NCBI GenBank assembly: GCA_900547385.1
Contig: URGQ01000002.1
Coordinates: forward strand, 114,475-178,474
Origin: an uncultured Oscillospiraceae bacterium
GTDB taxonomy: Bacteria; Bacillota; Clostridia; Oscillospirales; Ruminococcaceae
Length of the DNA stretch: 64,000 nt
Direction of reading: 5' to 3'
Both the position numbers and the translations under genes were made by a program. Positions 3,338-54,652 of this stretch are shown here, in pieces (the first letter of the stretch is position 1; each line of letters opens with the position of its first letter). The notes beneath the pieces were generated by a model. It searched no databases. It was not told the DNA's origin and was given only the letters and a program-made list of their open reading frames with translations.

Positions 3338-5133
3338 TGTTGAGTTTCTGGCGTGCAATTTTCTATTCGTCCTTACTCGACCCGATTTTTACGGCAGTAG
3401 CCTCTGCACTGGGTGTAACAAAGCAGGTGTGTAAGGAGTACTGCACCAGCGGTGTTATGGAGTATGGTCTTACCATGCTGCTGATTGTGCTGGCGGTCAT
3501 TCTGGTCATCGTTCTTATCCGTGTATTTGGTCTACTGAACGGCGGCAACCTAAGCGGTAAGTACAACCCCGAGAGCCTGGAAAAGGTGAAGAGCAGTCCT
3601 CTTGCGGGCAAGAACATCGTTTTCCTGGGCTCTTCCGTCACCAAGGGCTTTGCGGCCTATGGCAAGTCTTTCGTTGACATGATCGCCGCCCGCACCGGCG
3701 CTACCTGTGTGAAGGAAGCAGTAAGTGGTACTACTCTGGTGGACGACAACGCCAAGAGCTATGTGGCTCGTCTGAAGGCGCTGGACCCCAAGACCCCCTG
3801 CGACCTGTTTGTATGCCAGCTTTCCACTAACGATGCTACCAAGAAGAAGCCTTTGGGCAAGGTAGCGGTTGCCGGTGAAGCCTATGATACCAAGACCATC
3901 TGCGGCGCGATCGAGTACATCATCGACTACGCCAAGAAGACCTGGAATTGCCCCATTGCGTTCTATACTAACCCCGAGTATGCTTCTCCCGAGTATAAGG
4001 ACATGGTGGAGGCGCTGTATGCCATCGCCAAGAAGTGGGATGTTGCGGTAATCGACCTGTGGAACGACCGTGAGCTGAACACCAAGGAAGCGAAGAAGCG
4101 TTCCTGCATGAACGACCAGATTCACCCCACCAAGAAGGGTTATGCCCTGTGGACCCCTGTTATGGAAGCGGCCCTTGGTAATGTGGTAGAGGGTAAGGCC
4201 GTACCCGCTCGTCCCAAGACCGAGCCGGCTGTGACCCGTGAGGAAGTGGCGAAGAAGAAGAGCGGCCGCACCACCAAGAAGGTTATCCTGCGCATCCTGG
4301 CCGCTATCCTGGCAATCATCATTGTAGTTGGCGCCAGCACGGTTCAGCAGCTGTTTGCTGTTACCGGCATGAAGAATGAAGGTAATAGTGATACCTATAA
4401 TCCTGAAAATGTTACCATGAAGGCTGATAGCCCCATCAAGGGCAAGAAGCTGCTATGGTTGGGCTCCTCGGTATTCCAGGGCTTTGGCGCTCGTAATACC
4501 TCCCCGGCACTTTGGATCGATGCGATGGATGGTACGATCTCTACTATTGAAGTTAAGGGCGGTACCTTCCTTGCTTCCATCGACGGTTCTATCGGCGGCG
4601 GTGTTGCTGGTTCCATTTCGGCTGACTCGTCCTATATCAACCGTCTGCGCAACCATACTGCCGAGACTGATCCCGATCTGGATCTGGTAGTGGTTCAGCT
4701 CTCCACTAATGACTCCAAGGGTCAGTGCGAGACCGGCGTAGTAAGCGACAGCTTTGATCCTGCGACCTTTGATGAAGTAACCACCACCGGTGCGCTGGAA
4801 GCGATCATTGCGTACGCTAAGGAAACCTGGGGTGCTCGTGTTCTGGTTATCACCGGCACTTACTTTGAGGATGAAATGACCTATTCCGGCGGACAGAATG
4901 CAGAGATTTACAAGACCATGATCGAGCGATGCCATGAGCTGGACGAAAAGTGGGGCGATGACTTCACCGTTTTGGATCTGTGGCACAATGATGCGATGTA
5001 TGAGAATGTTAAGACCGGCGATGCTCTGTGGAGATCCTACATGAGCGATGCCATCCATCCTACCAAGAAGGGCTATCTTGAGTGGTGGGGTCCGTACATT
5101 GAAGCACAGCTGTACGAGATGCTTGCTGACTGA
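3338..5133 (+). CDS. Membrane-anchored tandem SGNH/GDSL-family hydrolase (two repeated units, each TM helix + linker + SGNH domain)
   Basis: AAAGGAGG SD before the ATG at 3338. Two TM segments (LTMLLIVLAVILVIVLI and ILRILAAILAIIIVVGA). Each is followed by a homologous linker (KYNPESLEKVKSSPLAGKNIVFLGSS versus TYNPENVTMKADSPIKGKKLLWLGSS) and by the SGNH blocks GSS...TND...DxIHPTKKGY. Confidence 0.75.
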
Positions 5134-28845: not shown

Positions 28846-30306
28846 ATGAACGATAATCGGAGCGGTGGGGAAGGCCTGCAAAGAAAGCTCTCTCCACTGA
28901 ATGTATGGGCACTAGCCCTAGGCAGCATTATCGGGTGGGGTGCGTTTGTTATGCCCGCCAATACCTTTTTACCCAATGCCGGGCCGCTGGGTACTCTTAT
29001 TGCTATGGCTGCGGGCGCCATCATTATGGTCGTTATTGCCCTCAATTACAGCTATATGATCAACCATTTCCCGGTAGCGGGTGGCGAATTCACCTTTACC
29101 AATGCCTCGTTTGGGCCCACCTGCGGTTTTTTATGCGCGTGGTTCCTGGGCCTCTCCTATCTTGCCATCGTGCCCTTGAATGCTACTGCTTTGGCGCTCA
29201 TCGGCCGTAATCTCTTCCCAAATCTGACCCAGTGGGGCTATCTCTATTCGGTGGAAGGTTACAGCATTTACGCTGGTGAAATTCTGCTGGCCATCATTGC
29301 GCTGGTGCTTTTTGCGGTATTCAGCATCCGGGGTGTCAGCGTGGCTGGCAAGTTCCAGACTGTCCTGGCGCTTTCTCTGGTTGGCTGTGTGTTCCTGCTG
29401 GCGATTGCTGCGCTGTTCAGCCCGCATGCTTCCGCTTCCCATTTGGCGCCCGCATTTACCACAGATGCCACCGGTAAGTCTTCGTTGGGCGGTATCCTTG
29501 CTGTGGTAGCGGTCGCGCCTTGGGCATTTGTCGGGTTCGATTCCATTCCTCAGGCTTCGGAGGAGTTCAATTTCTCCCATAAAAAGAGCCTTGTTATTAT
29601 GGTTCTTTCCATCCTGTTCGGCGGCGCTCTGTATGTCATTCTCAATACCATCACGGCCGCAGTCCTGCCCGAAGGCTATACCAGTTGGGTGCCTTATATT
29701 GCCGATTGCGCCAAAGATACCCTACCCGAAAGCCTTGCCGGCTTTACGGCGCTCCCCACCTTTAATGCGGCCCGTCTGATCCTCGGCAAGCCCGGTCTGG
29801 TTATTTTGGGCATTGCGCTGTTCTGCGCTGTACTTTCCGGCATCATTGGCTTTTATATGGCTACCAGCCGTCTTTTGTACTCCATGTCCAAGGACCATGT
29901 CCTCCCGGGCTGGTTTGGCCGCCTGCACCCCCGCTATAAAACCCCGATGAATGCCATCCTGTTCATCATGATCATTTCACTGTGCTGCCCATGGTTTGGC
30001 CGCACTGTGCTCAATTGGGTGGTAGATATGTCCTCCATCGGTGCCGCTATTGGATATGGTTTTACCTCGGCCGCCACTTTGGTACAGGTTCGCCGCAATA
30101 AGGATACCTCCGCATGGATGACCATAAATTCCATTTTGGGCGTCATTTTTTCGCTGTGCTTCATAGCACTGCTTATCGTCCCCAATCCTTGGGCATACCT
30201 GGGGCCGCAGTCCCGTATCGCGTTGGTTATTTGGACTGTCATGGGTGCTGCATTCTTCCTCTACACCCGGCGGAAGAAGGCAGCGGAGAAGGCCATCGAC
30301 GCTTGA
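28846..30306 (+). CDS. APC-superfamily amino-acid permease
   Basis: 12 predicted TM helices and an APC family profile; AAAGGAGG SD. Confidence 0.8.
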   Translation: MNDNRSGGEGLQRKLSPLNVWALALGSIIGWGAFVMPANTFLPNAGPLGTLIAMAAGAIIMVVIALNYSYMINHFPVAGGEFTFTNASFGPTCGFLCAWFLGLSYLAIVPLNATALALIGRNLFPNLTQWGYLYSVEGYSIYAGEILLAIIALVLFAVFSIRGVSVAGKFQTVLALSLVGCVFLLAIAALFSPHASASHLAPAFTTDATGKSSLGGILAVVAVAPWAFVGFDSIPQASEEFNFSHKKSLVIMVLSILFGGALYVILNTITAAVLPEGYTSWVPYIADCAKDTLPESLAGFTALPTFNAARLILGKPGLVILGIALFCAVLSGIIGFYMATSRLLYSMSKDHVLPGWFGRLHPRYKTPMNAILFIMIISLCCPWFGRTVLNWVVDMSSIGAAIGYGFTSAATLVQVRRNKDTSAWMTINSILGVIFSLCFIALLIVPNPWAYLGPQSRIALVIWTVMGAAFFLYTRRKKAAEKAIDA

Positions 30307-30620
30307 CATTGGCGGTAAGTTTGTTATAATAGATAAAAAATGAAACGCGAAGAAGGAAACCGAGTACCTCTTTTTTAGCCTTTTCAGAGAGCCGGCGGTT
30401 GGTGCAAGTCGGTAAGGAGGAAAGCAGGGAAATACATTCCGGAGCGGTGGCCTGAACAGACGACAGTAGGGCACGACGGGGTGCGACCGTTACATCGCAG
30501 AGGTCTTTCCATAGGACCTATCAAGGGGCTTCCGGTAACGGCAGCCCGAACCAGAGGTGGTACCACGAAGTCCATTCGTCCTCTGTCCGTATTGTAACGG
30601 ACAGAGGATTTTTATTTTAT
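30303..30620 (+). promoter_or_regulatory. Sigma-A promoter plus T-box riboswitch leader controlling tyrS
   Basis: TTGACA-N16-TATAAT at 30303-30330. T-box sequence AACCAGAGGTGGTACCACG at 30549-30567. A terminator hairpin (CCTCTGTCCGT ... ACGGACAGAGG plus a T-run) at 30579-30620. A UAC tyrosine codon candidate lies in the specifier region (GAGUACCUC). Confidence 0.8.
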
Positions 30621-30648: not shown

Positions 30649-31872
30649 ATGCAGATTTATGAAGAGCTGGTTGCCCGCGGACTTATTGCGCAGGTTACCA
30701 ATGAAGAAGAAATCAAAAAAATGATCAATGAGGGCAAGGCAACTTTCTATATTGGCTTTGACTGCACAGCCGATAGCCTGACGGCCGGTCACTTTATGGC
30801 CCTGACGCTGATGAAGCGCCTGCAGATGGCAGGGAACCGCCCCATTGCCCTCATTGGCGGCGGCACCACTATGATCGGTGATCCCTCTGGTCGCACCGAT
30901 ATGCGCAAGATGCTCACCGCGGAGGACATCAACCACAATGCCGAATGCTTTAAGCGTCAGATGGAGCGCTTTATCGAATTTGGCCCGGATAAGGCCATCA
31001 TGCTCAATAACGCTGATTGGCTTCTCAAGCTCAACTATGTGGAGCTGCTGCGTGAGGTAGGCGCCTGCTTCAGTGTCAATAATATGCTGCGCGCTAAGTG
31101 CTACGAGCAGCGCATGGAAAAGGGCCTTTCCTTCCTTGAGTTCAACTACATGATTATGCAGTCTTATGATTTCTACTACATGTTCCAGCATAATGGCTGC
31201 AATATGCAGTTTGGCGGCGATGACCAGTGGAGCAACATGTTGGGCGGCACCGAGCTGATCCGCCGCAAGCTGGGCAAGGACGCCCATGCAATGACCATCA
31301 CTTTGCTTACCGATTCTCAGGGCCACAAGATGGGAAAAACTGCCGGCAACGCCGTTTGGCTTGATCCCAATAAGACCAGCCCCTTCGATTTCTACCAGTA
31401 TTGGCGCAATGTTGGCGACAGCGATGTGCTCAAGTGCATTCGCATGCTTACTTTCCTGCCGCTGGAGCAGATTGACGAAATGGATAAGTGGGAGGGCAGC
31501 GAGCTGAACCGTGCCAAGGAGATCCTGGCCTACGAGTTGACCAAGATGGTACACGGTGAGGAAGAGGCGGAAAAAGCGCAGGCCGCAGCCAGACAGCTCT
31601 TTAGCGGCGCGGGTGATAGCGCCAACATGCCTACCACCTCCCTTACCGCTGCTGACATCACCGATGGAGCCATTACGCTGGCGGATCTGATGGTCAAGGT
31701 GGGGCTTGCCCCCTCCAAGGGCGAGGTCAGACGGCTGGTACAGCAGGGCGGTGTCGCTGTCAATGATGTAAAGGTAGATAACTTTGCAGAAAGCTACGAT
31801 GAAGCGGCGCTCCGTGCCGGCCTTATCATCAAGAAGGGCAAAAAGGTCTTCCATAAGGTCGTGCTGGAATAA
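30649..31872 (+). CDS. tyrS: Tyrosine--tRNA ligase
   Basis: HIGH-type motif (TAGHF), KMSKS-type motif (KMGKT), C-terminal S4 domain. Confidence 0.95.
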   Translation: MQIYEELVARGLIAQVTNEEEIKKMINEGKATFYIGFDCTADSLTAGHFMALTLMKRLQMAGNRPIALIGGGTTMIGDPSGRTDMRKMLTAEDINHNAECFKRQMERFIEFGPDKAIMLNNADWLLKLNYVELLREVGACFSVNNMLRAKCYEQRMEKGLSFLEFNYMIMQSYDFYYMFQHNGCNMQFGGDDQWSNMLGGTELIRRKLGKDAHAMTITLLTDSQGHKMGKTAGNAVWLDPNKTSPFDFYQYWRNVGDSDVLKCIRMLTFLPLEQIDEMDKWEGSELNRAKEILAYELTKMVHGEEEAEKAQAAARQLFSGAGDSANMPTTSLTAADITDGAITLADLMVKVGLAPSKGEVRRLVQQGGVAVNDVKVDNFAESYDEAALRAGLIIKKGKKVFHKVVLE

Positions 31873-31936: not shown

Positions 31937-31978
31937 AAAAGCTCCCCTTCCAAATGAGTGGAAAGGGAGCTTTTTTAT
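31937..31978. terminator. Bidirectional GC-rich terminator between tyrS and the convergent reductase gene
   Basis: AAAAGCTCCCCTT-ccaaatgagtgg-AAAGGGAGCTTTTTT. Confidence 0.6.
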
Positions 31979-31998: not shown

Positions 31999-34900
31999 TT
32001 ACTGCTTTTTGTGGGCAAAGAGCCGCTTCCACCACGGCTGCGGGGCAGGCAGGTAACCGCTCTTGATGAAATACCGAAGGTAACTTTGCAGCAGAGCTGC
32101 ATCCACTGGCTGGCATGCAATGCCGCTGCCTTCGAGCAGCCGATCGGTATTGGCAGTGGAAAAGCGTGCCTGGTGAACACCGAAGCGGGCAATCATATCC
32201 TCGCCGGCGGTGCGCTGGTCAGTAAACAGGCAGGAGAGAATGCGCAGAACATTTTCCTCACTAGTGGTGGCAGTCAGGCGTTGGCACCATTCCCCATAGG
32301 GCAGCAGTTCCAGCGGATAGCCTGCTTTTTTCATCAGAGCGGTCATCTGCCGCAGCGGCATCAACCGGTGATTAAGCAGATTGAAGGCATGTCCGCAGCA
32401 TTCATTCCGGAAGGAAATATGAATAAGCGCATCGGCGACATAGTCTACCGGGGTCAGGTGCAGGTTTACCTCCACATCCGGGGCGGCGCCCAGTTGTACG
32501 CAGCCTACCATGGATCGACTGATGAGATCTTCCAGCTTCCAAATGCCGGTGGCAAGGGTACCGGTGATATCACCAGGGCGATAGACCGCTGCCCGCAGGC
32601 CACGCTGCCTGGCCAATTCCACCAGCTTTTCGGCTACCCATTTGGTCTCGGAATAGCCGAGGAAGTAGCCATCGGGAGATTCTAGCGGATCATCCTCCAT
32701 TACAGTGCGATCGAAATGACTGGGGTTATCGTATACGCTGTAACTGGAAACATAGTGGAAGTATTTCGGACGGCCTTCGCAGGCCAGCCGCAGACATTCA
32801 GCAGTGCCCAGTACATTGGCAGGCTTCATCTGCCGGTAGGGGAATACAAAATTTAGCACAGCGCCATTATGATAAACGGCATCGACCTCTTTGGAGAGGA
32901 ACTGCCAGTTTTCTTCAGTCATGCCAAGGTGGGGCTGGGTCAGATCGCCCGGCACAGCGTGCAGATAGGCAAGATAGGAATCCTGCCAGCACTCGAACCG
33001 CTTCATATTATTGATGATGCGCTCCAGAGCCTTTTCGGGTGTGGCGGCCCGGGCATGGCAATAAATTTTGATCCCATGATCCTTACGCTGCTCGATGAGA
33101 GCCCGAATGAGATAGGCCCCTAAAAAGCCGGTAGAGCCGGTGAGGAATACGGTATGGCAATCCTGCGGTTGGCAGGTATACTCGCCTTGTGGGGCAATTT
33201 CTGCGGGCAGAATACACTCTGCATGCAGATCAGGTTGGAAATCCCGCTCCCGGCCGGAAAGCAATGCGCTGAGATAAGCAGATATGCCGGAAACAGTAGG
33301 ATCGGCGGCTATGCAGCGGATATCAATATTGATGCCAAGGTCCTGTTCCAGGCCGCATACCAGCTCCATCATGCGCAGGGAATCACCGCCGAGTGTGAGG
33401 AAGCTGTCATTGGGACCGAAGGAGATGCCGGGCAGGACTTCCCGGAAAATGGCGCTGATAATGGGCTGGATCTGCTCCGGGGTAGCATTGGGCGGGAGCT
33501 CGATTTTTGGCCGGGGGGCAGCGGGTGCGCTCTGCTGGGGATTTGTGGCATTACCGCTGCTTCGGCTACTGTAAAGGAGGGGCAGTCGGCCGCTTTCGTA
33601 CAGGGTATGGGTCGCCAGTGTTTTGATCTTACGGTTATCGGTGCGGGGAAGGCTGCCGGCCGGAGTAAAGGCGACATCCCAGAAGGAGAAACCGAAATTC
33701 CGGGCTGTCAGGCGGTTGACCTGGGCGGCAATGGCCGCATAATCCGCATCGGGAGTGGACTCGGCACAGAGGATGGGATGTTCGCCTTCCGGAGAAGGCA
33801 GGGAGAATACCGCGATAGCATCGGCGGGGAGCGGAACGCCTTCCTGGCGAAGCAGCAGGGTGATATCACCGGGGAAGATATTTTTGCCGCTGATAATAAT
33901 CATTTCCTTGATTCGTCCGGTGAGATAGAGTTGTCCCTCATACAGAACACCCATATCACCGGTGCGGTAGAACTGGCCCGGATAACCAGGAATGATGGTT
34001 TGGAAGCGTTTCGTTTCCTCGGGATTTTGCCAATAGCCGGCACACACACTGCTGCCCTGGATGCAGATCTCGCCGATTTCACCGGGTTCACAGGGGGAAC
34101 CATCCGGACGGATGGCGACCAGGACCATATTGCCCGCAGGTCGCCCAACGCTGACAATGTCCTTTTCTCCAGTGGGGGAGGGAACGAAGCGGCCTTCCCG
34201 ATAGGATTCCAGATCGATATGCTGACAGCGGAAATCCCGGCTGGCCAATGTACCAACACAAACACACTCCGAAAGTCCGTAACCGGGTGCAAAGCAATCC
34301 GTTGAGATATGGAACAATTCACAGAACTTGTCCACAGTGGCGGCATTTACAAATTCGGAGCCATTAATGAGGTGGGTGACATGGGAAAGATCATACTTTT
34401 TGGCTTCCTCCGGAGAGATGAGTCGGGTACAAACCTCATAGGCGGAATTGGGCGCTGCGGTGATATTTACCTTGTAATCGGCGATGACCCGCAGCCAAAT
34501 GGTGGGCCGGGCCAAAAACTGCAGGGTGGGGATAAAGTAAGAGATGCCGGTATCGGCAATGACTGGCAGAAAAATGGCCACGATGAGGCCGATATTGTGG
34601 TAAAAGGGTACCCAGGAGGCAAGATTGTTCTTAGTGTGCTGGAAATCGAAGATCTCCAGGCACTGACCGATGCAGCCCATGAGGTTTCCATAAGTGACCA
34701 TAACGCCCTTTGGCGCACTGGTGGAGCCGGAGGTATACTGCAAATACAGCAGGTCATCGGCTTCATGCGGAGTCAATTTGCCCAGGGGTGCGGGTTTTAC
34801 CTTATCGGAGTAGATGCGCTTGAGTGTCACAACATTGAGGAAGGCTTTTTTGAGCAGTGAGCCGGTCACATTGGTATCGGCCTCCTTTTCCATGCCTTCG

Positions 34901-35250
34901 TTGGAGATGAGAAAGCGAGGTTTACAAGATTTGAGTACCGAGACAAAACGGTCCAGCTTGCCTTCATCAATGGGAGGCGGGATAACGGTAAAGATCACCC
35001 CAGCGATCATACAGCCCCAAATGGCATAGACGGTTCCGGCATCCTGCATGGAAAGGATAATAGCGCGGTCACCGGGACGGGCGCCCTTTTGACGCAGCTC
35101 CGCGGCCATATCCATAGCATGCTGCCATGCTTCGCCAATCGTTATATAGTGGTGAACATAGGGCTCGCTTCCGCAATCCATAAAGTCATACATCGGCCGT
35201 TCAGGGTTCTGCGCGGCATCCCGCATGAATTTTTCCAAAATACCATCCAT
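31999..35250 (-). CDS. Carboxylic-acid-reductase-like three-domain enzyme: fatty acyl-AMP ligase (FAAL-type adenylation), carrier protein, thioester reductase
   Basis: Adenylation motifs (YTSGSTSAPKGV, FAAL-like N-terminus). Phosphopantetheine attachment site FLTLGGDSLRMMEL. Reductase NAD(P) motif TGSTGFLG and VLNFVFPY...NVLGTAECLRLA, which matches CAR and NRPS terminal reductase domains. ATG at 35250 after GGAGGTGG. Confidence 0.8.
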   Translation of the reverse strand: MDGILEKFMRDAAQNPERPMYDFMDCGSEPYVHHYITIGEAWQHAMDMAAELRQKGARPGDRAIILSMQDAGTVYAIWGCMIAGVIFTVIPPPIDEGKLDRFVSVLKSCKPRFLISNEGMEKEADTNVTGSLLKKAFLNVVTLKRIYSDKVKPAPLGKLTPHEADDLLYLQYTSGSTSAPKGVMVTYGNLMGCIGQCLEIFDFQHTKNNLASWVPFYHNIGLIVAIFLPVIADTGISYFIPTLQFLARPTIWLRVIADYKVNITAAPNSAYEVCTRLISPEEAKKYDLSHVTHLINGSEFVNAATVDKFCELFHISTDCFAPGYGLSECVCVGTLASRDFRCQHIDLESYREGRFVPSPTGEKDIVSVGRPAGNMVLVAIRPDGSPCEPGEIGEICIQGSSVCAGYWQNPEETKRFQTIIPGYPGQFYRTGDMGVLYEGQLYLTGRIKEMIIISGKNIFPGDITLLLRQEGVPLPADAIAVFSLPSPEGEHPILCAESTPDADYAAIAAQVNRLTARNFGFSFWDVAFTPAGSLPRTDNRKIKTLATHTLYESGRLPLLYSSRSSGNATNPQQSAPAAPRPKIELPPNATPEQIQPIISAIFREVLPGISFGPNDSFLTLGGDSLRMMELVCGLEQDLGINIDIRCIAADPTVSGISAYLSALLSGRERDFQPDLHAECILPAEIAPQGEYTCQPQDCHTVFLTGSTGFLGAYLIRALIEQRKDHGIKIYCHARAATPEKALERIINNMKRFECWQDSYLAYLHAVPGDLTQPHLGMTEENWQFLSKEVDAVYHNGAVLNFVFPYRQMKPANVLGTAECLRLACEGRPKYFHYVSSYSVYDNPSHFDRTVMEDDPLESPDGYFLGYSETKWVAEKLVELARQRGLRAAVYRPGDITGTLATGIWKLEDLISRSMVGCVQLGAAPDVEVNLHLTPVDYVADALIHISFRNECCGHAFNLLNHRLMPLRQMTALMKKAGYPLELLPYGEWCQRLTATTSEENVLRILSCLFTDQRTAGEDMIARFGVHQARFSTANTDRLLEGSGIACQPVDAALLQSYLRYFIKSGYLPAPQPWWKRLFAHKKQ

Positions 35251-35481
35251 TATAGCCACCTCCATGGGAAGATTACCAATATTTATTAGTTGGCTAATCA
35301 ACCAATATACTAAGGATAGTAAAACACTTTTTAGGGAGAATGTCAACAGAATCGTAGCAATTTTGCTAACATTCCGCAAATTTCCGACGAAATATGCCAT
35401 GGGAAAAGAAAAAACTCCCGACAGAGGACCGCTTTGTATCGGGCAGTTCTACTATCAGGAGTGCGGGACTATTATGATGGG

Positions 35482-37461
35482 TTATTCTTTGGGGGTGATG
35501 GCGCCGCTGCGGTAGGCCTCCAGCAGTTCCTGCAGATCGGCTACCCGGCGGGCAATGGTCTTACCGTCGTCGATATCCCGGATGAGCTGGCGGCGTGGAA
35601 ATTTTTCTACCACGCGTACCTCGGAGTGCATATCTTCATTGTTACGCATGGCCTCGCTGATATTGATGGGATGGTGCTGGGCCAGCAGCAGCTGGTGGGA
35701 GTTGCTGACCAGGGTATAGCCGCAGCCGCCGGTGACGGAATTGAGACGCTCATTCATGCCGCCATCAATATTGATGACACGGCCATTGGCCTTGACAGGA
35801 GACTCACCGGCTTTGACCGGGACATGGCCGGTGATGATCTTGCCGTGGACGGGATCGGCTCCGAATTCTTCCAGAATGCGGATGGCTGTTTCCTCCTGCT
35901 CGATCCACTTATAGTAGGGGTCTTTTTCCTCCTTGCCGGCGGTGTCATCCGCAATGAAGTACCGCTCGAAGGTAGCGATCTTATATTTGCCGCTAAGCGG
36001 GGAGTGAGTTCCGCACCATAGATACCACATCAGATCCAGACTGTTCCTGCGCAGTTCGGAATGACGGGGTGCATAGGATGCCACCCGAACAATGTGATTG
36101 TAGGCATCCAGCATGGCCCGGCCGGCATACTTTTGGCCATTGATGGTGGAGTAGTGCAGGGTACCGTCCTCATTCATAGGAATGCAGCCGTGATAGAGAA
36201 GGTAGCCGTTATTGACCTTGTAAATGGAGCCGTTATCCAGCAGGAACTTGAGATGACGCTGCATCCGTACGCTGTTGCGGAAGGAAAAGGCCAAATCGTT
36301 CATCACGGTTTCCTCCTCCGGAGAGAGACGATAGGGGTCTTCCGGTGAGAGGGTGGGGAAATGGGAATCCTTGAGGTCATACCAATGACCGTCGATTTGG
36401 ATACGGTGGGTCTTTGAGTCCATCGTTTCCCAGAAGAGACGGTGTGACATGTGATATTCGGGATGATCCCGCAGGATGCGGCCCTCCAGCTTGAACTGGA
36501 TGACCGAGATGGCCTTGTGCACCTTGGCGGTGAGTTCATCATTTTCCCGGCGCTGCTTCAGTTCAGTTTCCCGCTTGCTGTGGCTGGGCAGAAAAAGAGT
36601 GCAGGGATCATCACGGTAGGTTTCCAGCGCAAACTGGGTGAGAGGGCGCAGGTTAATGCCGTAGCCGTCCTCTAGAGAATCAAAGTTATTGTAGCGGATG
36701 CAGTTGCGCAGCACATTGGCGATGGAGGCCCACTGGCCCATAGCTGCCGCCATCCACAGGATATCGTGATTGCCCCACTGGATATCGACATTATTATACT
36801 CCATCAAGGTATCCATAACCTTATGAGCGCCGTTGCCGCGGTCAAATACATCGCCGACAATGTGCAGTTTATCAATGACCGCGTGCTGGATGAGCTCCGA
36901 AATGGCGATGATGAAAGCATCGGCACTGCCAATTTCGATGATGCTGTGGACGATATTGTGGACATAGGTGGTGCGGTTGTCATCCTCATCAGCTTCGGAG
37001 TAATTGAGCAACTCATCGATGATGTAGGCAAAATCGTGGGGCATGGCCTTGCGCACCTTGGAGCGGGTGTACTTACTGGTGGCCTTGCGGCAAACCTGCA
37101 CCAAATGCAGCAGGGTGGTGGTGTACCAGACCTGGTTTAGTGAGCCATGAGCTTCCTTGAGGAGTGCCAACTTTTCTTCCGGGTAATAGATGAGAGTGGC
37201 CAGTTCATCCATTTCGGCAGTGGACATTTCCTCCTCTGAGAAGCATTGGAAGATCTTGCGTCGGACGGAGCCGGAAGCATTTTTGAGAATATGAAGAAAA
37301 AGGCGGTATTCACCATGAATATCGCTGATAAAGTGTTCGGTGCCTTTGGGCAGGCCGAGGATGGCATTTAAGTTGATGATTTCGGTAGAGACCTGGGCAG
37401 GGCTGGGAAACTTTTGAGAGAGAAGCTCCAGGTATTGCAGTCGTTCTTCGGTCAGGTTCAA
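35482..37461 (-). CDS. fbp: Fructose-1,6-bisphosphatase class 3
   Basis: TEIINLNAILGLPKGTEHFISDIHGEY matches Bacillus Fbp. Metallophosphoesterase motifs GDVFDRG and GNHD. 659 aa, TTG start after GGAGG. Confidence 0.85.
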   Translation of the reverse strand: MNLTEERLQYLELLSQKFPSPAQVSTEIINLNAILGLPKGTEHFISDIHGEYRLFLHILKNASGSVRRKIFQCFSEEEMSTAEMDELATLIYYPEEKLALLKEAHGSLNQVWYTTTLLHLVQVCRKATSKYTRSKVRKAMPHDFAYIIDELLNYSEADEDDNRTTYVHNIVHSIIEIGSADAFIIAISELIQHAVIDKLHIVGDVFDRGNGAHKVMDTLMEYNNVDIQWGNHDILWMAAAMGQWASIANVLRNCIRYNNFDSLEDGYGINLRPLTQFALETYRDDPCTLFLPSHSKRETELKQRRENDELTAKVHKAISVIQFKLEGRILRDHPEYHMSHRLFWETMDSKTHRIQIDGHWYDLKDSHFPTLSPEDPYRLSPEEETVMNDLAFSFRNSVRMQRHLKFLLDNGSIYKVNNGYLLYHGCIPMNEDGTLHYSTINGQKYAGRAMLDAYNHIVRVASYAPRHSELRRNSLDLMWYLWCGTHSPLSGKYKIATFERYFIADDTAGKEEKDPYYKWIEQEETAIRILEEFGADPVHGKIITGHVPVKAGESPVKANGRVINIDGGMNERLNSVTGGCGYTLVSNSHQLLLAQHHPINISEAMRNNEDMHSEVRVVEKFPRRQLIRDIDDGKTIARRVADLQELLEAYRSGAITPKE

Positions 37462-37531: not shown

Positions 37532-38428
37532 TCAGCAGAGTCCGAGTTGTTTCGTCATAGTAAATTGTTGTTGCAGTAATGCAAGGTGATCCGGTTCTAT
37601 GAGGGAAAGTGGCATGCGGCAGCTGCCACAAGGGAAACCAACAAGCGGCATGGCAGCTTTGACAGGGATGGGGTTGACCTCGCAAAAGAGGGATTTCATC
37701 AAGGGAAGAAGGGAATAGTGCAGGGAACGGGCTGCCGATAGATCGTTCTGCAAGATCGCCTGACAGAGGGCTTCGGTGCTGTGGGGAAGCAGATTGCTGA
37801 GGACGGAAATGCAGCCGTGTGCTCCCAGGGACATCAGAGGCAGGGTGAGGTCATCATTGCCAGAATAGAGGGGGAGAGTATCACCAAGTTCCAACAGGTG
37901 TTGATGAATGAGGCTAAAATCGGTACTGGCTTCCTTAAGGCCGATGATATTATCAACTTTGGAAAGTTTCCGGCGGCTCTCCATATCGATGGTCACCCCG
38001 GTACGGGACGGAACATTATAGATGATGACCGGGAGCGGTGTGGCGGATGCCAGCCGCGCGAAATGCGACTGTAAGCCCTTGGGCGTGCATTTATTGTAAT
38101 AAGGGGTGACTAGAAGCAGGGCATCGGCACCGGCCGCCGCGGCGGCCAGGCAGTTCTGTTCGGCACGGGCGGTGTCATTGCATCCGGCTCCAGCGATGAC
38201 CGGCACCCGGCCAGCTGCGGTTTTGGCTACAGTTTGGATGACGGTAAAGCGTTCCTCATCAGTGAGAGTAGCGGCTTCTCCCGTGGTGCCGCAGGGCACC
38301 AACGCTGAGATACTGCTTTGGATCTGCCATTCTGCAAGGCGGGAGAGAGTTTCTAAATCCAAAGAGCCATCTGGCTGCATTGGGGTGACCAGTGCCGTGG
38401 CTGCCCCGCGGAATAGAATTTGTTTCAT
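37532..38428 (-). CDS. dapA: 4-hydroxy-tetrahydrodipicolinate synthase
   Basis: DapA homology with a TIM barrel; ATG at 38428 after AAAGGAGG. Confidence 0.9.
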   Translation of the reverse strand: MKQILFRGAATALVTPMQPDGSLDLETLSRLAEWQIQSSISALVPCGTTGEAATLTDEERFTVIQTVAKTAAGRVPVIAGAGCNDTARAEQNCLAAAAAGADALLLVTPYYNKCTPKGLQSHFARLASATPLPVIIYNVPSRTGVTIDMESRRKLSKVDNIIGLKEASTDFSLIHQHLLELGDTLPLYSGNDDLTLPLMSLGAHGCISVLSNLLPHSTEALCQAILQNDLSAARSLHYSLLPLMKSLFCEVNPIPVKAAMPLVGFPCGSCRMPLSLIEPDHLALLQQQFTMTKQLGLC

Positions 38429-38561
38429 ATGAAATACGCCTCCTTTCATCCTTAGTATATGAGAGGGAGTAGCGTGTCATTAAAATGGAACGAAAAAGAA
38501 GCCGATCACTGAAAATGACCTGCTTCTTTTAGATGGAATATTCAATGGGATAGTACAGCGT

Positions 38562-49714: not shown

Positions 49715-50036
49715 TTTATGTACCTCCAGTTATTGATAAAGGGGAATTCATTGTGAACATTCTCCTTTGTATGTCTCTACAATATAGTATTTTTTTGATT
49801 TTGTCAAAGCGCAGTTGGACTATTTTTACAAGAAAGCACAGCGCAATTTGTATATAATGCAATGACCTGGTTGGCTAAATTGCGCAACTAAGTGGCAGAT
49901 TGTGTTATTCTAAAAGAAAATTATTGTAGAATATCACAAAATGAAACGGGAGAAGCTGTATATGCTGCCAATACGATAAAATTTAAGAAAAAAGCCCCGC
50001 GGGTTAAATACCGTGGGGCTTAGCTATGGAATTGTT

Positions 50037-50834
50037 TTATAAATCGAGTTTGTCAATGCGATGAATACCGATGTGGTTAAGAAAGTGAACGGCATAATCA
50101 TAGATATCAGAATTCTTGAAATCTACCGCCGAATCGTGGGCGTCGAAGCCAATAATTGCGGTAATGCCATGATCTTTGGCAATGCGCCAGAAATCGGGAT
50201 GAGGGAAACAATCCAGCCGATTATGTTCCAGCGCGAAAAGAAAACCGGAGATGTTGTATTCGAGAATTGCATTGCAGCGAGCCGCAGTTTCACAAATACG
50301 ATGACTGAGTGCAACACAGTGTTCATCAAAATAAGGGTAACCGCGGATGAAAAGATCAGGGTGGGCCACATAGGTATAGAATTTACTTTCAATGCCCGGA
50401 ATGATGTTCTGCTCGTAACGCTCGAGGTCATGGGGCGCTAAAATATCACGGCCGAAATAAAAACGCTCCGGGACGGGGGCATCCAGTTCATCGTAGTGGG
50501 CACCGTAGATCAGATATTCGATCCCGTATTCCGACTTCATATCAAGAAGCTCCTGCATATGGTGCGGGAAGTACTCCGCCTCCAGGCCGAGGTGAATCTC
50601 GATCTGGTCCTTGTATTTTTCCCGCAGGCGGTTTACGCTGCCGCAGTATTCCGGCAGGTATTGCGGCTCCATGCGGACATGGGAATCGTAATCGGCAGGG
50701 AAGTGAGGCCACGGGGTATGATCAGAAAAGCCTAAAATATCAAAGTCAGCTTTTATGGCATTGAGTACAATGCGCTCGTCATTGCCCATGGCGTGTTTAC
50801 AACGGTAGGTGTGGGTGTGGTAATTGGTTTTCAT
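50037..50834 (-). CDS. PHP-family histidinol-phosphatase-like phosphoesterase (HisJ/HisK type)
   Basis: HTHTYRCKHA N-terminal PHP motif, 265 aa. Confidence 0.8.
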   Translation of the reverse strand: MKTNYHTHTYRCKHAMGNDERIVLNAIKADFDILGFSDHTPWPHFPADYDSHVRMEPQYLPEYCGSVNRLREKYKDQIEIHLGLEAEYFPHHMQELLDMKSEYGIEYLIYGAHYDELDAPVPERFYFGRDILAPHDLERYEQNIIPGIESKFYTYVAHPDLFIRGYPYFDEHCVALSHRICETAARCNAILEYNISGFLFALEHNRLDCFPHPDFWRIAKDHGITAIIGFDAHDSAVDFKNSDIYDYAVHFLNHIGIHRIDKLDL

Positions 50835-51850
50835 TCGGTTTCAGCTTCCTTTTTGGATGGTTTGGATTTAACATGAGAAAGGGGATTGCGGTCAGCGGCA
50901 TTGGCAATTTGATCATTGCTGACATGGGTATATATTTCTGTGGTGCCAAGATTGACATGGCCGAGAATTTCCTTTAGAACACGGATATCCACACCACCGT
51001 ATTGATACATGAGAGTGGCGGCAGTATGACGAAGTTTGTGAGGGGAATAGCCCCGACCGCCTAAGCCGGCGGCTTTTAGATGTGTTTCTACTATTTGTTC
51101 CACCCGGCGGGGGGTAAGTGGTGCACGGGTACGGGAGGAAACCAACAGGTAGGGTTTATCGGCATCCTTTGGTGGTTCCGGACGAACAGCCAAATATTCT
51201 GCGATGGCGTTAAGACAAGCGCTGTTAAGATAAACCATGCGCTCTTTATTCCCCTTGCCCAGTACAGTAAGGGTGTCATCCCGGATATCCGAGAGCTTAA
51301 TACCGACCAACTCCGAAAGACGAATGCCACAGTTAAGCAGAATGGTGATGATACAATAATCGCGTTCACGATCCTTGCCTTCAATGGATTCCAGCAGGTG
51401 CAGGCTTTCATCCAAAGTAAGGTATTTTGGAAGACTTTTGCGCTGGGCAGGAATCTCCAACTGTTCCATGGGGTTTTCCTCTAGGCGGCCAGCCTTACTT
51501 TGCAGATATTTATAGAAGCCGCGCAAGCTGGAAACCTTGCGGGCACGGGTCTTGGCGTTATTTTGGTTGACGCTTTGCACATAAGCCAGGAAAGAATATG
51601 CATCGGAAAGGCGTGCACTGAGAATCATTTCCTCGCTGATGGAGGCAAACGAAATGCTTTCAAGATTTGGGTCGTCCGTGGGTAGGGGAGTGCCACTGCG
51701 AGTGGCCATTAGATAACGCAGGAATAGGCGGAGATCGTTGTAGTAGGCTTCTACAGTGCGGGGAGAGCGTCCCTTGATGGTGCTCATATAGATGAGATAA
51801 TCGCGCAGCAGCTGTGGCGCAGGTGCTGCCATGATAGAAAATGTCTGCAT
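50831..51850 (-). CDS. xerC: Site-specific tyrosine recombinase, XerC/XerD family
   Basis: Catalytic R...HxxR...Y residues (HKLRHTAAT, GHVNLGTTEIYTHV) and an N-terminal SAM-like domain. Its stop overlaps the start of the PHP gene. Confidence 0.8.
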   Translation of the reverse strand: MQTFSIMAAPAPQLLRDYLIYMSTIKGRSPRTVEAYYNDLRLFLRYLMATRSGTPLPTDDPNLESISFASISEEMILSARLSDAYSFLAYVQSVNQNNAKTRARKVSSLRGFYKYLQSKAGRLEENPMEQLEIPAQRKSLPKYLTLDESLHLLESIEGKDRERDYCIITILLNCGIRLSELVGIKLSDIRDDTLTVLGKGNKERMVYLNSACLNAIAEYLAVRPEPPKDADKPYLLVSSRTRAPLTPRRVEQIVETHLKAAGLGGRGYSPHKLRHTAATLMYQYGGVDIRVLKEILGHVNLGTTEIYTHVSNDQIANAADRNPLSHVKSKPSKKEAETE

Positions 51851-51989
51851 TCGGTTTCCTCCTCTCTTCGGTTTATTGCCAATCTATTATAGTAGAAATG
51901 CAAGCTGCATGCAAGTGTGTAGATGCGCAAAAAGGCCGGAGCCGAAGCCCCGGTCATTTTTGAAAATAATTGAGGAGGTGATAGTTGTT

Positions 51990-52535
51990 TTATAAAAGAG
52001 AGTCCCTCCAAAAGCGCCCGGAGAAGCAGGCCCATGCAATAGATGCGATACCCTGCAGGATAAGCACTAGTCCAACGATCCAACTGAGGGCCATAGCACC
52101 GGAAATGGGATCATAGAACGAAAGGATGCCCGCAACAGTAAGGAGGATACCAAGGGCGGTAAACCACCCCCAACCCCGCACACCAAGGCGCTGAAGATCA
52201 AAGGAGCTAACGAAACGGCTGATACCGCCGAAGAGTAGCCACATCCCGAAAATAAACGGCAGCGAAAGCATGGTGAATGCCTGGTTGCAGAGCAGGAAAA
52301 TGGCTAACAGTACAGTGAAGATGCCATCCAGTAGGAACCAGCCGGAACCGAGCATAAAGCGCCGGGATGATGCAAAGATGACAATATCAACGATACCGGA
52401 GAAGAGCATGGCCAGTCCAAGTATAAGGGAAAGCCCACTCAAGGCAGCATCAAAAGAAACAAAGCAATACACGCCTGCAACAATAAGCAGTACACCGGCA
52501 ATGATCCATAAAACTCGCGATAGGGTTTTATTCAT
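51990..52535 (-). CDS. hdeD: HdeD/DUF308 family acid-resistance membrane protein
   Basis: Six TM helices and an HdeD family pattern; downstream of hsp20 on the same strand. Confidence 0.75.
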   Translation of the reverse strand: MNKTLSRVLWIIAGVLLIVAGVYCFVSFDAALSGLSLILGLAMLFSGIVDIVIFASSRRFMLGSGWFLLDGIFTVLLAIFLLCNQAFTMLSLPFIFGMWLLFGGISRFVSSFDLQRLGVRGWGWFTALGILLTVAGILSFYDPISGAMALSWIVGLVLILQGIASIAWACFSGRFWRDSLL

Positions 52536-52595
52536 AAATGACATCCTTTCAAAAAATTATATTATTGAATCGACGGGGCACAGGAGAGGGAGATT

Positions 52596-53036
52596 TTATT
52601 TAATCTCAACTGTAGATCTTGCAGGCAATTGACGGGAAGCCTTTGGAACGGAAATGCACAGGATGCCGTTTTCAAATTTAGCAGTGACCTGGGTAGGATC
52701 AATATCAGTACCAACATAGAAGCTGCGGCTACAAGAGCCCGCATAGCGTTCCTGACGGATGTATTTTCCTTCCTTATCACTTTCCTCTTTATCAAGTCCT
52801 TTGGCGGCGCTAATGTTTAGACAGCCTTCTTTCAGCTCGATGGAGATTTCATCTTTCTTAAAACCGGGCAAGTCAATATCCAGCTCGTAGGAGTTTTCGG
52901 TTTCCCGAACATCGGTCTTCATTAGATTCTTTGCGCGTTTACCGTAAAGAGGGTTATGACCTTGAGGCGCCATAATGGCGAAAGGTTCATTAAAAAATTC
53001 GTCGAAAAGATTTTCACCAAAGATACTGGGCATCAT
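52596..53036 (-). CDS. Hsp20/alpha-crystallin small heat-shock protein
   Basis: ACD domain (ELDIDLPGFKKDEISIEL, GILCISVPK); GGAGG SD. Confidence 0.9.
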   Translation of the reverse strand: MMPSIFGENLFDEFFNEPFAIMAPQGHNPLYGKRAKNLMKTDVRETENSYELDIDLPGFKKDEISIELKEGCLNISAAKGLDKEESDKEGKYIRQERYAGSCSRSFYVGTDIDPTQVTAKFENGILCISVPKASRQLPARSTVEIK

Positions 53037-53117
53037 AATTCATTCCTCCATTATTTTTTGATATAGGATTAAGCTGCTTCCTTAGGAGATTTTGTTGAAT
53101 CTCTCAAGTACAATACC

Positions 53118-53159
53118 ATTATAATTCCAAAATTAGCACTGTCAATAGTAGAGTGCTAA
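53118..53159 (-). promoter_or_regulatory. Sigma-A promoter (TTGACA-N16-TATAAT on the minus strand) overlapping a CIRCE/HrcA operator
   Basis: CIRCE TTAGCACTG-tcaatagta-GAGTGCTAA at 53133-53159. The -35 (53140-53145) lies inside it and the -10 is at 53118-53123. Confidence 0.7.
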
Positions 53160-53328
53160 TGTTTACAATTAAAATTGAATTTATTCATAAAATGTACTAT
53201 TTTGAAGAAATAATGTAAAATAGAAGAGAGAAGCAACTGGAAATCACGGGCGAGATCTCCAACCGCGGCAAGCGCCGGATTCGCAATTAGAAACCCACAG
53301 GGTGCGGCGGGTGACTTAATTTAGCGAA

Positions 53329-53429
53329 ATTTTTTTGATAAATCAAAATAGGGGATTGACAAAAGAGCGTGAATTTGTTATTGTGTGTTTAAGGAAATGC
53401 CATTTCGCTAAATTGAAATTTAGCGAAAT
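53329..53429. repeat. Three copies of the 12-mer ATTTAGCGAAAT (one direct at 53329-53340, and an inverted pair at 53402-53429 with a 4-nt spacer)
   Basis: Exact repeats seen in the sequence. The pair forms ATTTCGCTAAAT-tgaa-ATTTAGCGAAAT. Confidence 0.6.
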
Positions 53430-53503
53430 AGGTGGAGGCGCAATAACATAATACAAGCAATATCGATTATATAAAAAAAGCCCAGTGTAAACTGGGCTTT
53501 TTG
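53356..53503 (+). ncRNA. Candidate small transcript: a plus-strand promoter, the inverted-repeat hairpin, then a terminator
   Basis: TTGACA-N17-TATTGT (TG-extended) at 53356-53384, a hairpin at 53402-53429, and a terminator (an A-run, GCCCAGT-gtaa-ACTGGGC, TTTTT) at 53473-53503. No plausible ORF or start codon. Confidence 0.25.
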
Positions 53504-53515
53504 CTATGTCATTCT

Positions 53516-54652
53516 TTATTTACTTTTTTGAGCAAAGTATTGATATAGGTTACATTTTAGCATTCCATTATAGAGCTTACGCTTTTTATCTGCTTTTCTG
53601 CCAAAGCTTTGCTCGAAATTTTCCGCTGATGAAATGATGTAATAGGCCGTCTGCTGAGATGGCTGAAATACATTACCCATCGTTTGGTATAGCTTTGTCA
53701 AATCTTCGCCATTCATTAGGCGCTCGCCGTATGGCGGATTTGTCACGACCAATGATTTTCGATCTGGCATCGTGAAGTTTTTGACATTCATCTTTTCTAA
53801 CCGTACTAGTCCGGCAATACCAGCACGGCGTGCATTCGCTTCAGCAATCTCCAGTGAATCTTGGCTGATATCGCTGCCGAAAGCAGTAAATTCTATGTCT
53901 TTGCGGATTTTTTCTATCGCCTCTTCCCTACTCGTTTGCCATATTTTAGACGGTAAGCTATCCCATTTTTCTGCTGCAAAGCGGCGGTAAATGCCAGGAG
54001 CAATATTTTTGGCTTTATAGGCTGCTTCGATCAAAAATGTACCTGAGCCGCAGAACGGATCATACAGCTGTGTATCCGGGTATATTCGTGCAATATCCAG
54101 GATTCCAGCCGCTAGAGTTTCCCGAATTGGGGCAAGATTTGCAACTTTACGGTAGCCGCGCTTGTGCAGTGCCATGCCACTGGTATCCAGCATTATGGTG
54201 ACAGTATCCTTATTAATTGAAAATTGTATCTGGATAGTTGGGCCGGATTCCTCCAACCAGGCAACACCATATTTACGGGAAAGACGCTTGACTGCAGCCT
54301 TCTTGATGATGGATTGGCAGTCCGGAACACTATGGAGCTGTGAATTTAGACTCCATCCCTTAACTGGAAAAGCGTCTTTCTTGCCAATATACTCTTCAAA
54401 GGGGATTTTTTCTGCGCCATCAATGAGCTGCTGGAATGTGACAGCCCGAAAGCTGTCTAGGACAATGAGAACTCGCTCGGCGGTGCGCAGATTGAGGTTA
54501 GCCCTGGCGATCCCCTCCGCATCAGCGGTGAACTCTACTCGGCCATCGGTAACAGAGATGCCCTCGAAACCAAGGCGTTTTAGTTCGCCGCTTAGGACGC
54601 TTTCCAGGCCAAATAGGCAGGGCGCGCATAGTTTATATAATTGATTTATCAT
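53516..54652 (-). CDS. THUMP-domain class I SAM-dependent RNA methyltransferase (RlmL/RlmK-like, COG0116)
   Basis: THUMP N-terminus and methyltransferase motifs (DPFCGSGTF, NPPYG). ATG at 54652 after GGGAAAGGA. Confidence 0.8.
   Translation of the reverse strand: MINQLYKLCAPCLFGLESVLSGELKRLGFEGISVTDGRVEFTADAEGIARANLNLRTAERVLIVLDSFRAVTFQQLIDGAEKIPFEEYIGKKDAFPVKGWSLNSQLHSVPDCQSIIKKAAVKRLSRKYGVAWLEESGPTIQIQFSINKDTVTIMLDTSGMALHKRGYRKVANLAPIRETLAAGILDIARIYPDTQLYDPFCGSGTFLIEAAYKAKNIAPGIYRRFAAEKWDSLPSKIWQTSREEAIEKIRKDIEFTAFGSDISQDSLEIAEANARRAGIAGLVRLEKMNVKNFTMPDRKSLVVTNPPYGERLMNGEDLTKLYQTMGNVFQPSQQTAYYIISSAENFEQSFGRKADKKRKLYNGMLKCNLYQYFAQKSK

Follow-up and report, generated by a model that had tools for sequence, protein, structure and literature searches.

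Which reaction is catalysed by a protein that unites an adenylation, a carrier and a reductase domain in a single polypeptide chain, and what is its substrate? This question is raised by a 64,000-nucleotide stretch of DNA from an uncultured Oscillospiraceae bacterium (GenBank assembly GCA_900547385.1, contig URGQ01000002.1, positions 114,475 to 178,474 of the forward strand), which was analysed as a whole and is referred to as the window in the following. Its minus strand encodes, at 31999..35250, a protein of 1083 amino acids (aa) which an original prediction, made from the sequence alone, had described as an enzyme resembling carboxylic acid reductases (CARs) that would generate a fatty or aryl aldehyde or alcohol and has no biosynthetic partners. 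We consider it probable that this protein is a self-contained fatty-acid reductase of the "NRPS-like" kind (NRPS, non-ribosomal peptide synthetase) in which a fatty acyl-AMP ligase (FAAL)-type adenylation (A) domain is followed by an acyl carrier protein (ACP) domain and a reductase (R) domain (FAAL-ACP-R).

Domain architecture and classification

The gene and the domains of its product are arranged as follows.

31999..35250, minus strand: complete coding sequence of the 1083-aa FAAL-ACP-thioester reductase; stop codon at 31999..32001, start assigned from the ribosome-binding site and the N-termini of orthologues
33586..35223, minus strand: FAAL-type adenylation domain (aa ~10-555) with an N-terminal subdomain reaching to ~445 and a C-terminal subdomain that harbours the A10 lysine, Lys541
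34171..34239, minus strand: FAAL-specific insertion (aa ~338-360, RDFRCQHIDLESYREGRFVPSPT), directly after the A5 motif GYGLSE
33271..33456, minus strand: carrier domain (ACP or peptidyl carrier protein; aa 599-660, PF00550) with the phosphopantetheine site Ser624 in GGDSL, codon 33379..33381
32050..33153, minus strand: terminal thioester reductase domain (aa 700-1067; TIGR01746, match to MxaA, invariant catalytic residues)

The three domains in series which the original prediction had assumed are all recognised by Pfam, namely AMP-binding (PF00501, aa 10-407, E 2.4e-52), PP-binding (PF00550, aa 599-660, E 8e-10, 39.3 bits versus a cutoff of 20.8) and NAD_binding_4 (PF07993, aa 703-941, E 2.5e-63, 214 bits versus 20.1). 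The C-terminal part also exceeds the curated cutoff of the NCBIfam thioester reductase model TIGR01746 (318.1 versus 213.35 bits, aa 700-1067) and covers this model completely (1-371 of 371), in line with the proposed thioester reductase, whose Rossmann motif TGSTGFLG occupies aa 704-711. Invariance of individual residues was scored in an alignment of 32 homologues sharing 44-97% identity. Within the adenylation core, Thr173-Ser174-Gly175-Ser176, Lys181, Glu328, Thr430-Gly431-Asp432, Arg446 and Lys541 are invariant. The same applies to Gly621 and Ser624 of the carrier motif GGDSL, the latter being the serine whose presence had been predicted, and, within the reductase, to Thr704, Gly705, Gly708, Phe709 and Gly711 of the Rossmann motif as well as to Arg734, Ser835/Ser836 and the Tyr866-x3-Lys870 pair. 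Arg734 is located at the position which we take to bind the 2'-phosphate of NADPH in this class of reductases. In an AlphaFold2 model calculated on the family alignment (mean pLDDT 81) the individual domains are confidently predicted.

The N-terminal domain proves to be of the anticipated FAAL type and not an ordinary acyl-CoA synthetase. The hallmark of FAALs is an insertion within the N-terminal subdomain which is missing from acyl-CoA ligases (PMC11837247). Such an insertion, about 20 residues long in the window protein and comprising 19 to 24 residues across the family, is present in all family members, whereas the three long-chain acyl-CoA ligases used as comparators (three ANL enzymes of locus L075, whose best NCBIfam matches are all long-chain-fatty-acid--CoA ligases) show a gap in the alignment. 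HMMER aligns it without any gap to the matching segment of the Legionella pneumophila FAAL (3kxw) and of the Ols FAAL from Synechococcus PCC 7002 (7r7e). These two structures are also the best matches of the domain in the Protein Data Bank (PDB; ~4e-68), and the top 15 matches retrieved by phmmer with aa 1-562 are all FAALs, FadD23, FadD32 and FadD28 included. In a Foldseek search of the PDB, FAALs again rank first, among them the Ols FAAL in complex with stearoyl-/palmitoyl-adenylate (C16/C18; 7r7f, 7r7g; E ~1e-44) as well as FadD32 and FadD23. Of the NCBIfam models, those of fatty-acid--AMP ligases (PRK05850, PRK09192, FadD32 and others) match the N-terminal half best, while models of ordinary acyl-CoA ligases score far below them. 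The window enzyme thus resembles the Ols FAAL (7r7e-g), the L. pneumophila FAAL (3kxw/3lnv) and FadD32, FadD23 and FadD28 in that these are the best matches for aa ~10-555 and carry the insertion at the same place, and it would share with FAAL loading units the transfer of the acyl group to a phosphopantetheine arm instead of CoA. In contrast to these FAALs, to which it is only 24-29% identical and which feed polyketide synthase (PKS)/NRPS or mycolate machinery, its sole downstream domain is a reductase.

Judged by both sequence and fold, the R domain is closest to MxaA, a terminal reductase (TR) of the PKS/NRPS type. The PDB sequence search matches it to MxaA (4u7w) at E 1.4e-90, whereas CAR structures follow at ~1e-30 and are matched over the carrier-reductase (T-R) part only (5mso, 5msc and 5msp, aa ~610-993). 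Foldseek superimposes the R domain on that of MxaA with a TM score of 0.91, a root-mean-square deviation of 2.3 Å and 38% identity, and on the TR of a Streptomyces coelicolor PKS (8v1x) with a TM score of 0.92; there is no CAR among the top 50 Foldseek matches. With MxaA (myxalamid, 4u7w/4w4t), MxcG (myxochelin) and the S. coelicolor PKS TR (8v1x) the domain has in common the Tyr/Lys pair, the Rossmann motif and a score above the TIGR01746 cutoff. Unlike these reductases, which terminate multimodular assembly lines, it is predicted to reduce a simple acyl group loaded by the FAAL-type domain.

The window enzyme shares with the CARs of Nocardia, Mycobacterium and Segniliparus the A-T-R domain order, the ATP- and NADPH-dependent chemistry and the requirement for a phosphopantetheinyl transferase (PPTase). 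Its A domain, however, belongs to a different ANL subclass (FAAL), and the R domains of CARs are far more distant from it than that of MxaA. The CAR equivalog model NF041592 reaches 164 bits compared with a cutoff of 1300, and its best stretch is confined to aa 616-995. From its sequence the protein is therefore classified as FAAL-ACP-R, CAR-like in its action (adenylate, tether, reduce), yet outside the CAR family. Hence, the CAR-like domain order and way of working put forward in the original prediction are retained, while membership in the CAR family is not. Similarly, the predicted fatty product is in keeping with the FAAL-type domain, whereas an aryl substrate appears unlikely since the CAR model fails over the full length and CAR structures match the T-R part only.

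Distribution of the family and its gene neighbourhoods

FAAL-ACP-R is a common architecture, as confirmed from the sequences of the sampled representatives. A word-indexed search yielded more than 100 proteins of the same architecture with 43-97% identity, and an exhaustive search of 50%-identity representatives revealed relatives of the same length (~1050-1100 aa) down to ~30% identity. The 90%-identity cluster to which the window protein belongs comprises 3930 member sequences in public assemblies, and the family, whose members share 35-97% identity, is abundant in anaerobes from gut, rumen, digesters and termite gut. We fetched 78 genomic loci, called their open reading frames (ORFs) crudely, clustered the neighbours and mapped the contexts on a neighbour-joining tree calculated without bootstrap support. 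On this tree four types of gene context follow the clades. The absence of biosynthetic partners noted in the original prediction therefore applies to the locus itself, where nothing of the kind is adjacent, but not to the family, as relatives possess conserved gene sets; a putative SGNH hydrolase partner, moreover, is encoded 27 kb away in the window.

Within the Lachnospiraceae/Eubacterium clade (~44% identical), which includes the cultured Eubacterium ramulus ATCC 29099 (L050), the reductase gene is the first of a four-gene set in all 30 loci for which downstream sequence is available (L022, L025, L027, L030, L031, L034-L043, L046-L053, L055, L057, L058, L062, L069, L072 and L078; e.g. L035:10001-16300 and L041:10001-16178). 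It is followed, in this order, by the genes of a 305-aa DUF2229 protein, a 382-aa DUF2229/HGD-D protein and a 319-aa BcrAD/BadFG ATPase, the modal intergenic distances being 3, -1 and -4 nt. The ATPase exceeds the cutoff of the acyl-CoA dehydratase activase model TIGR00241 (201 versus 125 bits) and features the conserved Cys130 and Cys169 together with an additional C-terminal CxxCxxxCxxxC motif; each of the two DUF2229 paralogues contains five conserved cysteines. As far as can be read from the sequences, two DUF2229 proteins and an activase are the components that make up a radical enzyme of the BCR/HAD type. PlsA/PlsR, the plasmalogen synthase of anaerobes and a member of the BCR/HAD family, combines activation with reduction/dehydration domains (PMC12838417). 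The Lachnospiraceae partners resemble it, by part list and not by direct sequence comparison, in supplying an activase ATPase and two cysteine-rich DUF2229/HGD-D proteins. They differ from it in being three small separate proteins co-transcribed with FAAL-ACP-R. A homologue search with the DUF2229 partner returned only close orthologues (annotated "acyl-CoA dehydratase activase-related protein") and no direct bridge to PlsA/PlsR, and there is no NCBIfam model for either of the two DUF2229 proteins. We found no published description of this FAAL-ACP-R/DUF2229/activase operon, and none of its BCR/HAD-type partner genes is present in the window.

In the Bacteroidales clade (likewise ~44% identical) a protein of 430-550 aa is encoded directly upstream of the reductase in seven loci (L024, L028, L029, L032, L033, L044 and L054; e.g. 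L028:8640-10004). It displays weak similarity to Condensation/WS-DGAT proteins and a conserved NHMCMDG (xHxxxDG) motif. Two copies of this upstream protein carry a long insertion rich in Gly, Ser and Asp.

A further clade is formed by metagenome-assembled genomes (MAGs) of termite-gut Bathyarchaeia ("Ca. Bathycorpusculum"; L017, L019, L020, L021, L056, L065, L070 and L071; e.g. L017:10001-13997), whose enzyme is 51-53% identical to the Firmicutes protein. In six of these loci the gene of an Sfp-type PPTase is located immediately downstream in convergent orientation, which looks like a transfer of the enzyme from bacteria to archaea together with its activating PPTase. A census of FAALs published in 2026 reports them from only two archaeal MAGs, one of a Woesearchaeota and one of a Halobacteria (PMC12820801); the Bathyarchaeial clade thus seems to be unrecorded there.

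The fourth type of context is found in Oscillospiraceae whose enzymes are 55-71% identical to the window protein (Anaerotruncus, Ruthenibacterium and related MAGs). Here, a TetR regulator, an SGNH/GDSL hydrolase of ~270 aa and a tandem SGNH hydrolase of ~610 aa are encoded upstream of the reductase in six to seven loci, the tandem hydrolase being its direct upstream neighbour in L059, L007, L002, L005, L008 and L011, of which L008 stems from the cultured Anaerotruncus massiliensis AT3. The Angelakisella subclade to which the window belongs is nested within this TetR/SGNH group, although the tree provides no support values. The window contains the following counterpart.

3286..5133, plus strand: tandem SGNH/GDSL hydrolase of 615 aa consisting of two [transmembrane helix + SGNH] modules (Pfam Lipase_GDSL_2, two stretches)

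Its two modules suggest that this hydrolase is membrane-anchored. Its gene adjoins radA, 27 kb from the reductase gene, and its sequence is 72% identical to the copy in L059, which is encoded directly upstream of a reductase 70% identical to that of the window, and 69% identical to the copy in L007. The most parsimonious interpretation is that the hydrolase and reductase genes were clustered in an ancestor and became separated in Angelakisella, and from the neighbourhood in other genomes it is possible that the tandem SGNH hydrolase acts as a distant functional partner of the reductase. A further candidate for a conserved partner, a cluster of neighbours of 665-981 aa ("cluster 20") without any Pfam match, had to be discarded, as tblastn exposed it as a shadow ORF lying antisense to the gene of the large SGNH hydrolase.

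Several neighbours, all of them belonging to more distant family members, were encountered at one locus only: an aldehyde dehydrogenase encoded 24 nt upstream of the reductase gene (L073:8592-9974), a short-chain dehydrogenase/reductase (SDR) encoded 46 nt downstream of it (L075:13229-14107) and a GT2 together with a PMT-like glycosyltransferase encoded directly upstream (L004:2615-6052). By their position these neighbours fit an aldehyde product. Three distant FAAL-ACP-R proteins (P0358, P0366 and P0380; ~31% identity, ~1410-1430 aa) possess a C-terminal AurF-like di-iron oxygenase domain, to which the product of the reductase may be handed over. In three MAGs labelled Oscillospiraceae or "Blautia" (L006, L009 and L026; e.g. 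L026:5870-12673) four genes lie downstream of the reductase gene. They encode an ABC ATPase with a GAF domain, an FtsX/MacB-type permease of ~1050 aa that contains a long coiled-coil insert, a protein of metallo-beta-lactamase fold and one with a FecR domain.

Predicted reaction and alternative explanations

FAAL-ACP-R enzymes convert free fatty acids to aldehydes or alcohols without the involvement of CoA; the aldehydes are reactive, and ether lipids, waxes and amines are derived from the products. For the window enzyme we propose that the FAAL-type domain uses ATP to convert a free fatty acid, probably of medium or long chain, to its acyl-adenylate, and that the acyl group would then be moved onto the phosphopantetheine arm of the enzyme's own Ser624. 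Transfer to CoA would not take place because of the FAAL insertion. With Tyr866 and Lys870 as catalytic residues and NADPH as reductant, the SDR-type reductase domain would release the thioester as fatty aldehyde, and a second round of reduction, as in MxaA, might lead to the fatty alcohol. The PPTase required for activation would be encoded elsewhere in the genome. The reaction steps follow what is established for these enzyme families; the substrate class and chain length, the use of NADPH, the extent to which the product is reduced and the role in the cell are inferred. As to the latter, the gene neighbourhoods make it most likely that scavenged free fatty acids are turned into aldehydes or alcohols from which envelope lipids are built, or into derivatives of lower toxicity; in the sister lineages the membrane SGNH esterases would release such fatty acids and the TetR regulator would sense them.

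A number of observations weigh against this assignment. The searchable literature yielded neither biochemical nor genetic evidence on members of the family, and searches for the FAAL-ACP-R architecture in anaerobes, gut or plasmalogen contexts retrieved no paper on it. Every curated NCBIfam FAAL model remains below its own cutoff (PRK05850 282 versus 775 bits, PRK09192 252 versus 600, FadD32 233 versus 975), these models being subfamily-specific. Consequently, the FAAL status is based on the insertion, the best matches and the fold, and the protein is placed, as read from its alignment, within the FAAL class by the defining insertion and outside every curated FAAL subfamily. McyG is found among the sequence matches, and FAAL-like domains sometimes activate non-fatty acids. 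The olefin-synthase FAAL mutants (A229 and R336), consulted as a guide to determinants of chain length, led to no prediction of the chain length. The inter-domain geometry of the AlphaFold2 model is unreliable (pTM 0.48). A profile search for Sfp-type PPTases, which did not extend to AcpS-type enzymes, gave no match in the window; since the window covers only 64 kb of the genome, a PPTase and further partners may be encoded outside it. Finally, the link between the SGNH hydrolase and the reductase derives from the neighbourhood in other genomes only, the two genes being 27 kb apart here.

Among the alternatives we considered, it is conceivable, though unlikely, that the protein mainly serves as a loading module whose acyl group is used in trans by a separately encoded enzyme, an acyltransferase or one of the condensation type, to form a lipid ester or amide, with reductive release being a side or editing reaction. 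The Condensation (C)-domain/WS-DGAT-like protein with its NHMCMDG motif directly upstream of the reductase in the seven Bacteroidales loci would suit such a function, and so does the precedent of gut Clostridia in which free-standing A/ACP/C sets produce fatty-acid amides, as exemplified by OaaA, OaaACP and OaaC of Coprococcus eutactus, where the ACP receives fatty acids of dietary or host origin from the adenylating enzyme (PMC13310621). Unlike the window enzyme, however, the Oaa proteins are free-standing, release their product as amide through a condensation domain and lack a reductase. Moreover, the A and R domains are conserved to the same degree, with the catalytic residues of the latter invariant in every clade, which would not be expected of a dispensable release route, and neither the window nor the Oscillospiraceae loci contain a C-domain/WS-DGAT-like acyltransferase. 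We deem it still less likely that the enzyme is a true CAR acting on aromatic or short-chain acids, for instance phenylpropionate or benzoate, that stem from fermentation or the diet. This would account for the shared A-T-R order and overall chemistry and for the fact that CAR structures are detectable for the T-R part, but it conflicts with the low and partial NF041592 score, the FAAL insertion, the FAALs as best matches in both sequence and fold and the lack of any CAR among the top 50 fold matches.

Even smaller is the chance that the protein represents an NRPS-like amino- or keto-acid reductase of the Lys2/alpha-aminoadipate type or a pyrazinone-type reductive release enzyme which yields an amino aldehyde. 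Gut Clostridia make peptide aldehydes with C-A-T-R NRPSs, and the models TIGR03443 and MxcG do match the T-R part. These matches span only aa ~593-1072, though, and stay far below the cutoffs both for alpha-aminoadipate reductases (TIGR03443, 289 versus 1030 bits, T-R only) and for MxcG (382 versus 2300); TIGR01733, the model for NRPS amino-acid adenylation, is likewise missed (149 versus 317), and there is no C domain. The least credible of the options is a decaying or silent relic whose partner genes have been lost. While the separation from the SGNH and TetR genes that accompany the reductase in sister lineages could be understood in this way, the 3.2-kb ORF is intact and its dN/dS value is low; promoter-region elements are kept in the Angelakisella orthologues, and several Angelakisella genomes carry the gene in a syntenic position (see below).

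Going beyond the fatty-acid reductase assignment, one may speculate, with a rather low probability of being correct, that the FAAL-ACP-R family provides strict anaerobes with the long-chain aldehydes for their ether (plasmalogen-type) lipids, a source so far missing, and thereby forms a fatty-acid salvage route alongside PlsA/PlsR. The BCR/HAD-type enzyme of Lachnospiraceae could then dehydrate the hemiacetal of the aldehyde and a glycerolipid hydroxyl to the vinyl ether. If this held true, the Oscillospiraceae reductase would cooperate with the SGNH esterases of the membrane and with further partners encoded at other sites, and the spread of the gene and its own PPTase to termite-gut Bathyarchaeia would imply that an archaeon performs fatty-aldehyde lipid chemistry of the bacterial type. 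According to an old observation, anaerobes take long-chain aldehydes, and not alcohols, into plasmalogens (PMC9702350), a preference on which knowledge of substrate and product might bear. A link between a polypeptide of comparable make-up and ether lipids is provided by ElbD of Myxococcus xanthus, which unites fatty-acid activation, ACP and fatty-acyl reductase in one chain, is encoded in the elbA-E operon and is tied to fatty aldehyde and ether lipids; its N-terminal part is FAR-like and its C-terminal part an AGPAT-like acyltransferase (PMC9131029). Compared by description only, the window enzyme differs from ElbD (FAR-ACS-ACP-AGPAT) in its order A-ACP-R, in the lack of an acyltransferase domain and in the absence of elb-like neighbours. 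Taken by itself, the window yields a well-supported functional annotation of an orphan gene and not a new kind of system. The enzyme type is already familiar, whereas the family, widespread in anaerobes, is without a characterised member; identifying its substrate and product would make clearer what gut Clostridia do with the fatty acids of diet and host.

The locus within the window

The minus-strand reading frame which ends at 31999 is open as far as 35400 in the ORF list. The true start is the ATG at 35250: a GGAGG motif (35263..35259) is positioned 8 nt 5' of it, the N-terminus MDGILEKF... encoded from there is common to all close orthologues, and the first 50 codons of the open frame, above 35250, correspond to non-coding promoter sequence in the orthologues. 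A product of 1083 aa results from this start. The ratio of non-synonymous to synonymous substitution rates (dN/dS) amounts to 0.07 in comparison with three 85%-identical orthologues and to 0.13-0.16 in comparison with those of 66-71% identity. The gene is thus real, intact and functional-looking and under strong purifying selection. The closest genomes are those of Angelakisella (Oscillospiraceae), which exhibit 85% protein identity and the same queA-dapA-fbp-reductase synteny; one MAG contains an orthologue 96-97% identical to the window reductase.

The regions flanking the coding sequence contain the following features.

35251..35481, minus strand: 5' region of the reductase gene, 230 nt, non-coding (sequence reading and alignment of orthologues)
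35346..35341, minus strand: -35 element TTGACA, invariant among four orthologous upstream regions of Angelakisella type
35326..35316, minus strand: TGt-TTTACT(AT) element, 17 nt downstream of TTGACA, invariant in the same four-orthologue alignment
35305..35290, minus strand: imperfect palindrome TTGGTTGATTAGCCAA, invariant in the same four-orthologue alignment
31937..31974, strand not assigned: hairpin with a 16-bp stem, AAAAGCTCCC...GGGAGCTTTT, between the convergent tyrS and reductase genes (terminator scan)
30341..30586, plus strand: T-box leader ahead of tyrS (Rfam RF00230, 117.7 bits)
30649..31872, plus strand: tyrS, convergent with the reductase gene
35482..37461, minus strand: class-3 fbp, upstream of the reductase gene on the same strand
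37532..38449, minus strand: dapA, upstream of the reductase gene beyond fbp

The TTGACA and TGt-TTTACT(AT) elements and the palindrome are unchanged in the four Angelakisella-type loci although their flanks have diverged. Among the 78 loci, TTGGTTGATTAGCCAA is found exclusively 5' of Angelakisella-type orthologues. The conserved sequence makes the palindrome a candidate operator for some regulator. A consensus promoter scan did not call a promoter 5' of the reductase gene; from the conserved elements it appears that the gene has a promoter of its own which is probably regulated. Another palindrome, TAGCAAAATTGCTA at 35355..35368, was rejected as operator: it occurs once, its frequency is reached by 10 of 100 shuffles, and it is present in none of the 78 loci. 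By contrast, the element TTGGTTGAnnAnCCAA is kept among the Angelakisella orthologues, and only there. The hairpin at 31937..31974 is a probable bidirectional terminator and, along with the 230-nt intergenic region upstream, leaves the reductase gene monocistronic.

The position between tyrS and fbp/dapA agrees with the original prediction, fbp, dapA and queA being located upstream of the reductase gene on the same strand. No PPTase, condensation, transporter or tailoring gene adjoins it. The window as a whole is core chromosome of spore-forming Clostridia and harbours spoIIIA genes, gatA/gatB, ligA, radA, xseA, ispA, nadK, recN, MurT/GatD, queA/tgt, polC and ispG. An ORF of 1461 aa (58377..62762), considered as a PlsA-like activase-reductase, was identified by Pfam as PolC, with IspG as its neighbour. 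A perfect sigma-70 consensus promoter (30303..30330) precedes the T-box leader of tyrS. At 50831..51850 the minus strand encodes a tyrosine recombinase/integrase, and at 52-54 kb the GC content falls to 0.43 while the positive GC skew of 1-52 kb comes to an end. The region of about 50000..54000 may represent the border of an integrated element or else a shift in replication or strand bias.

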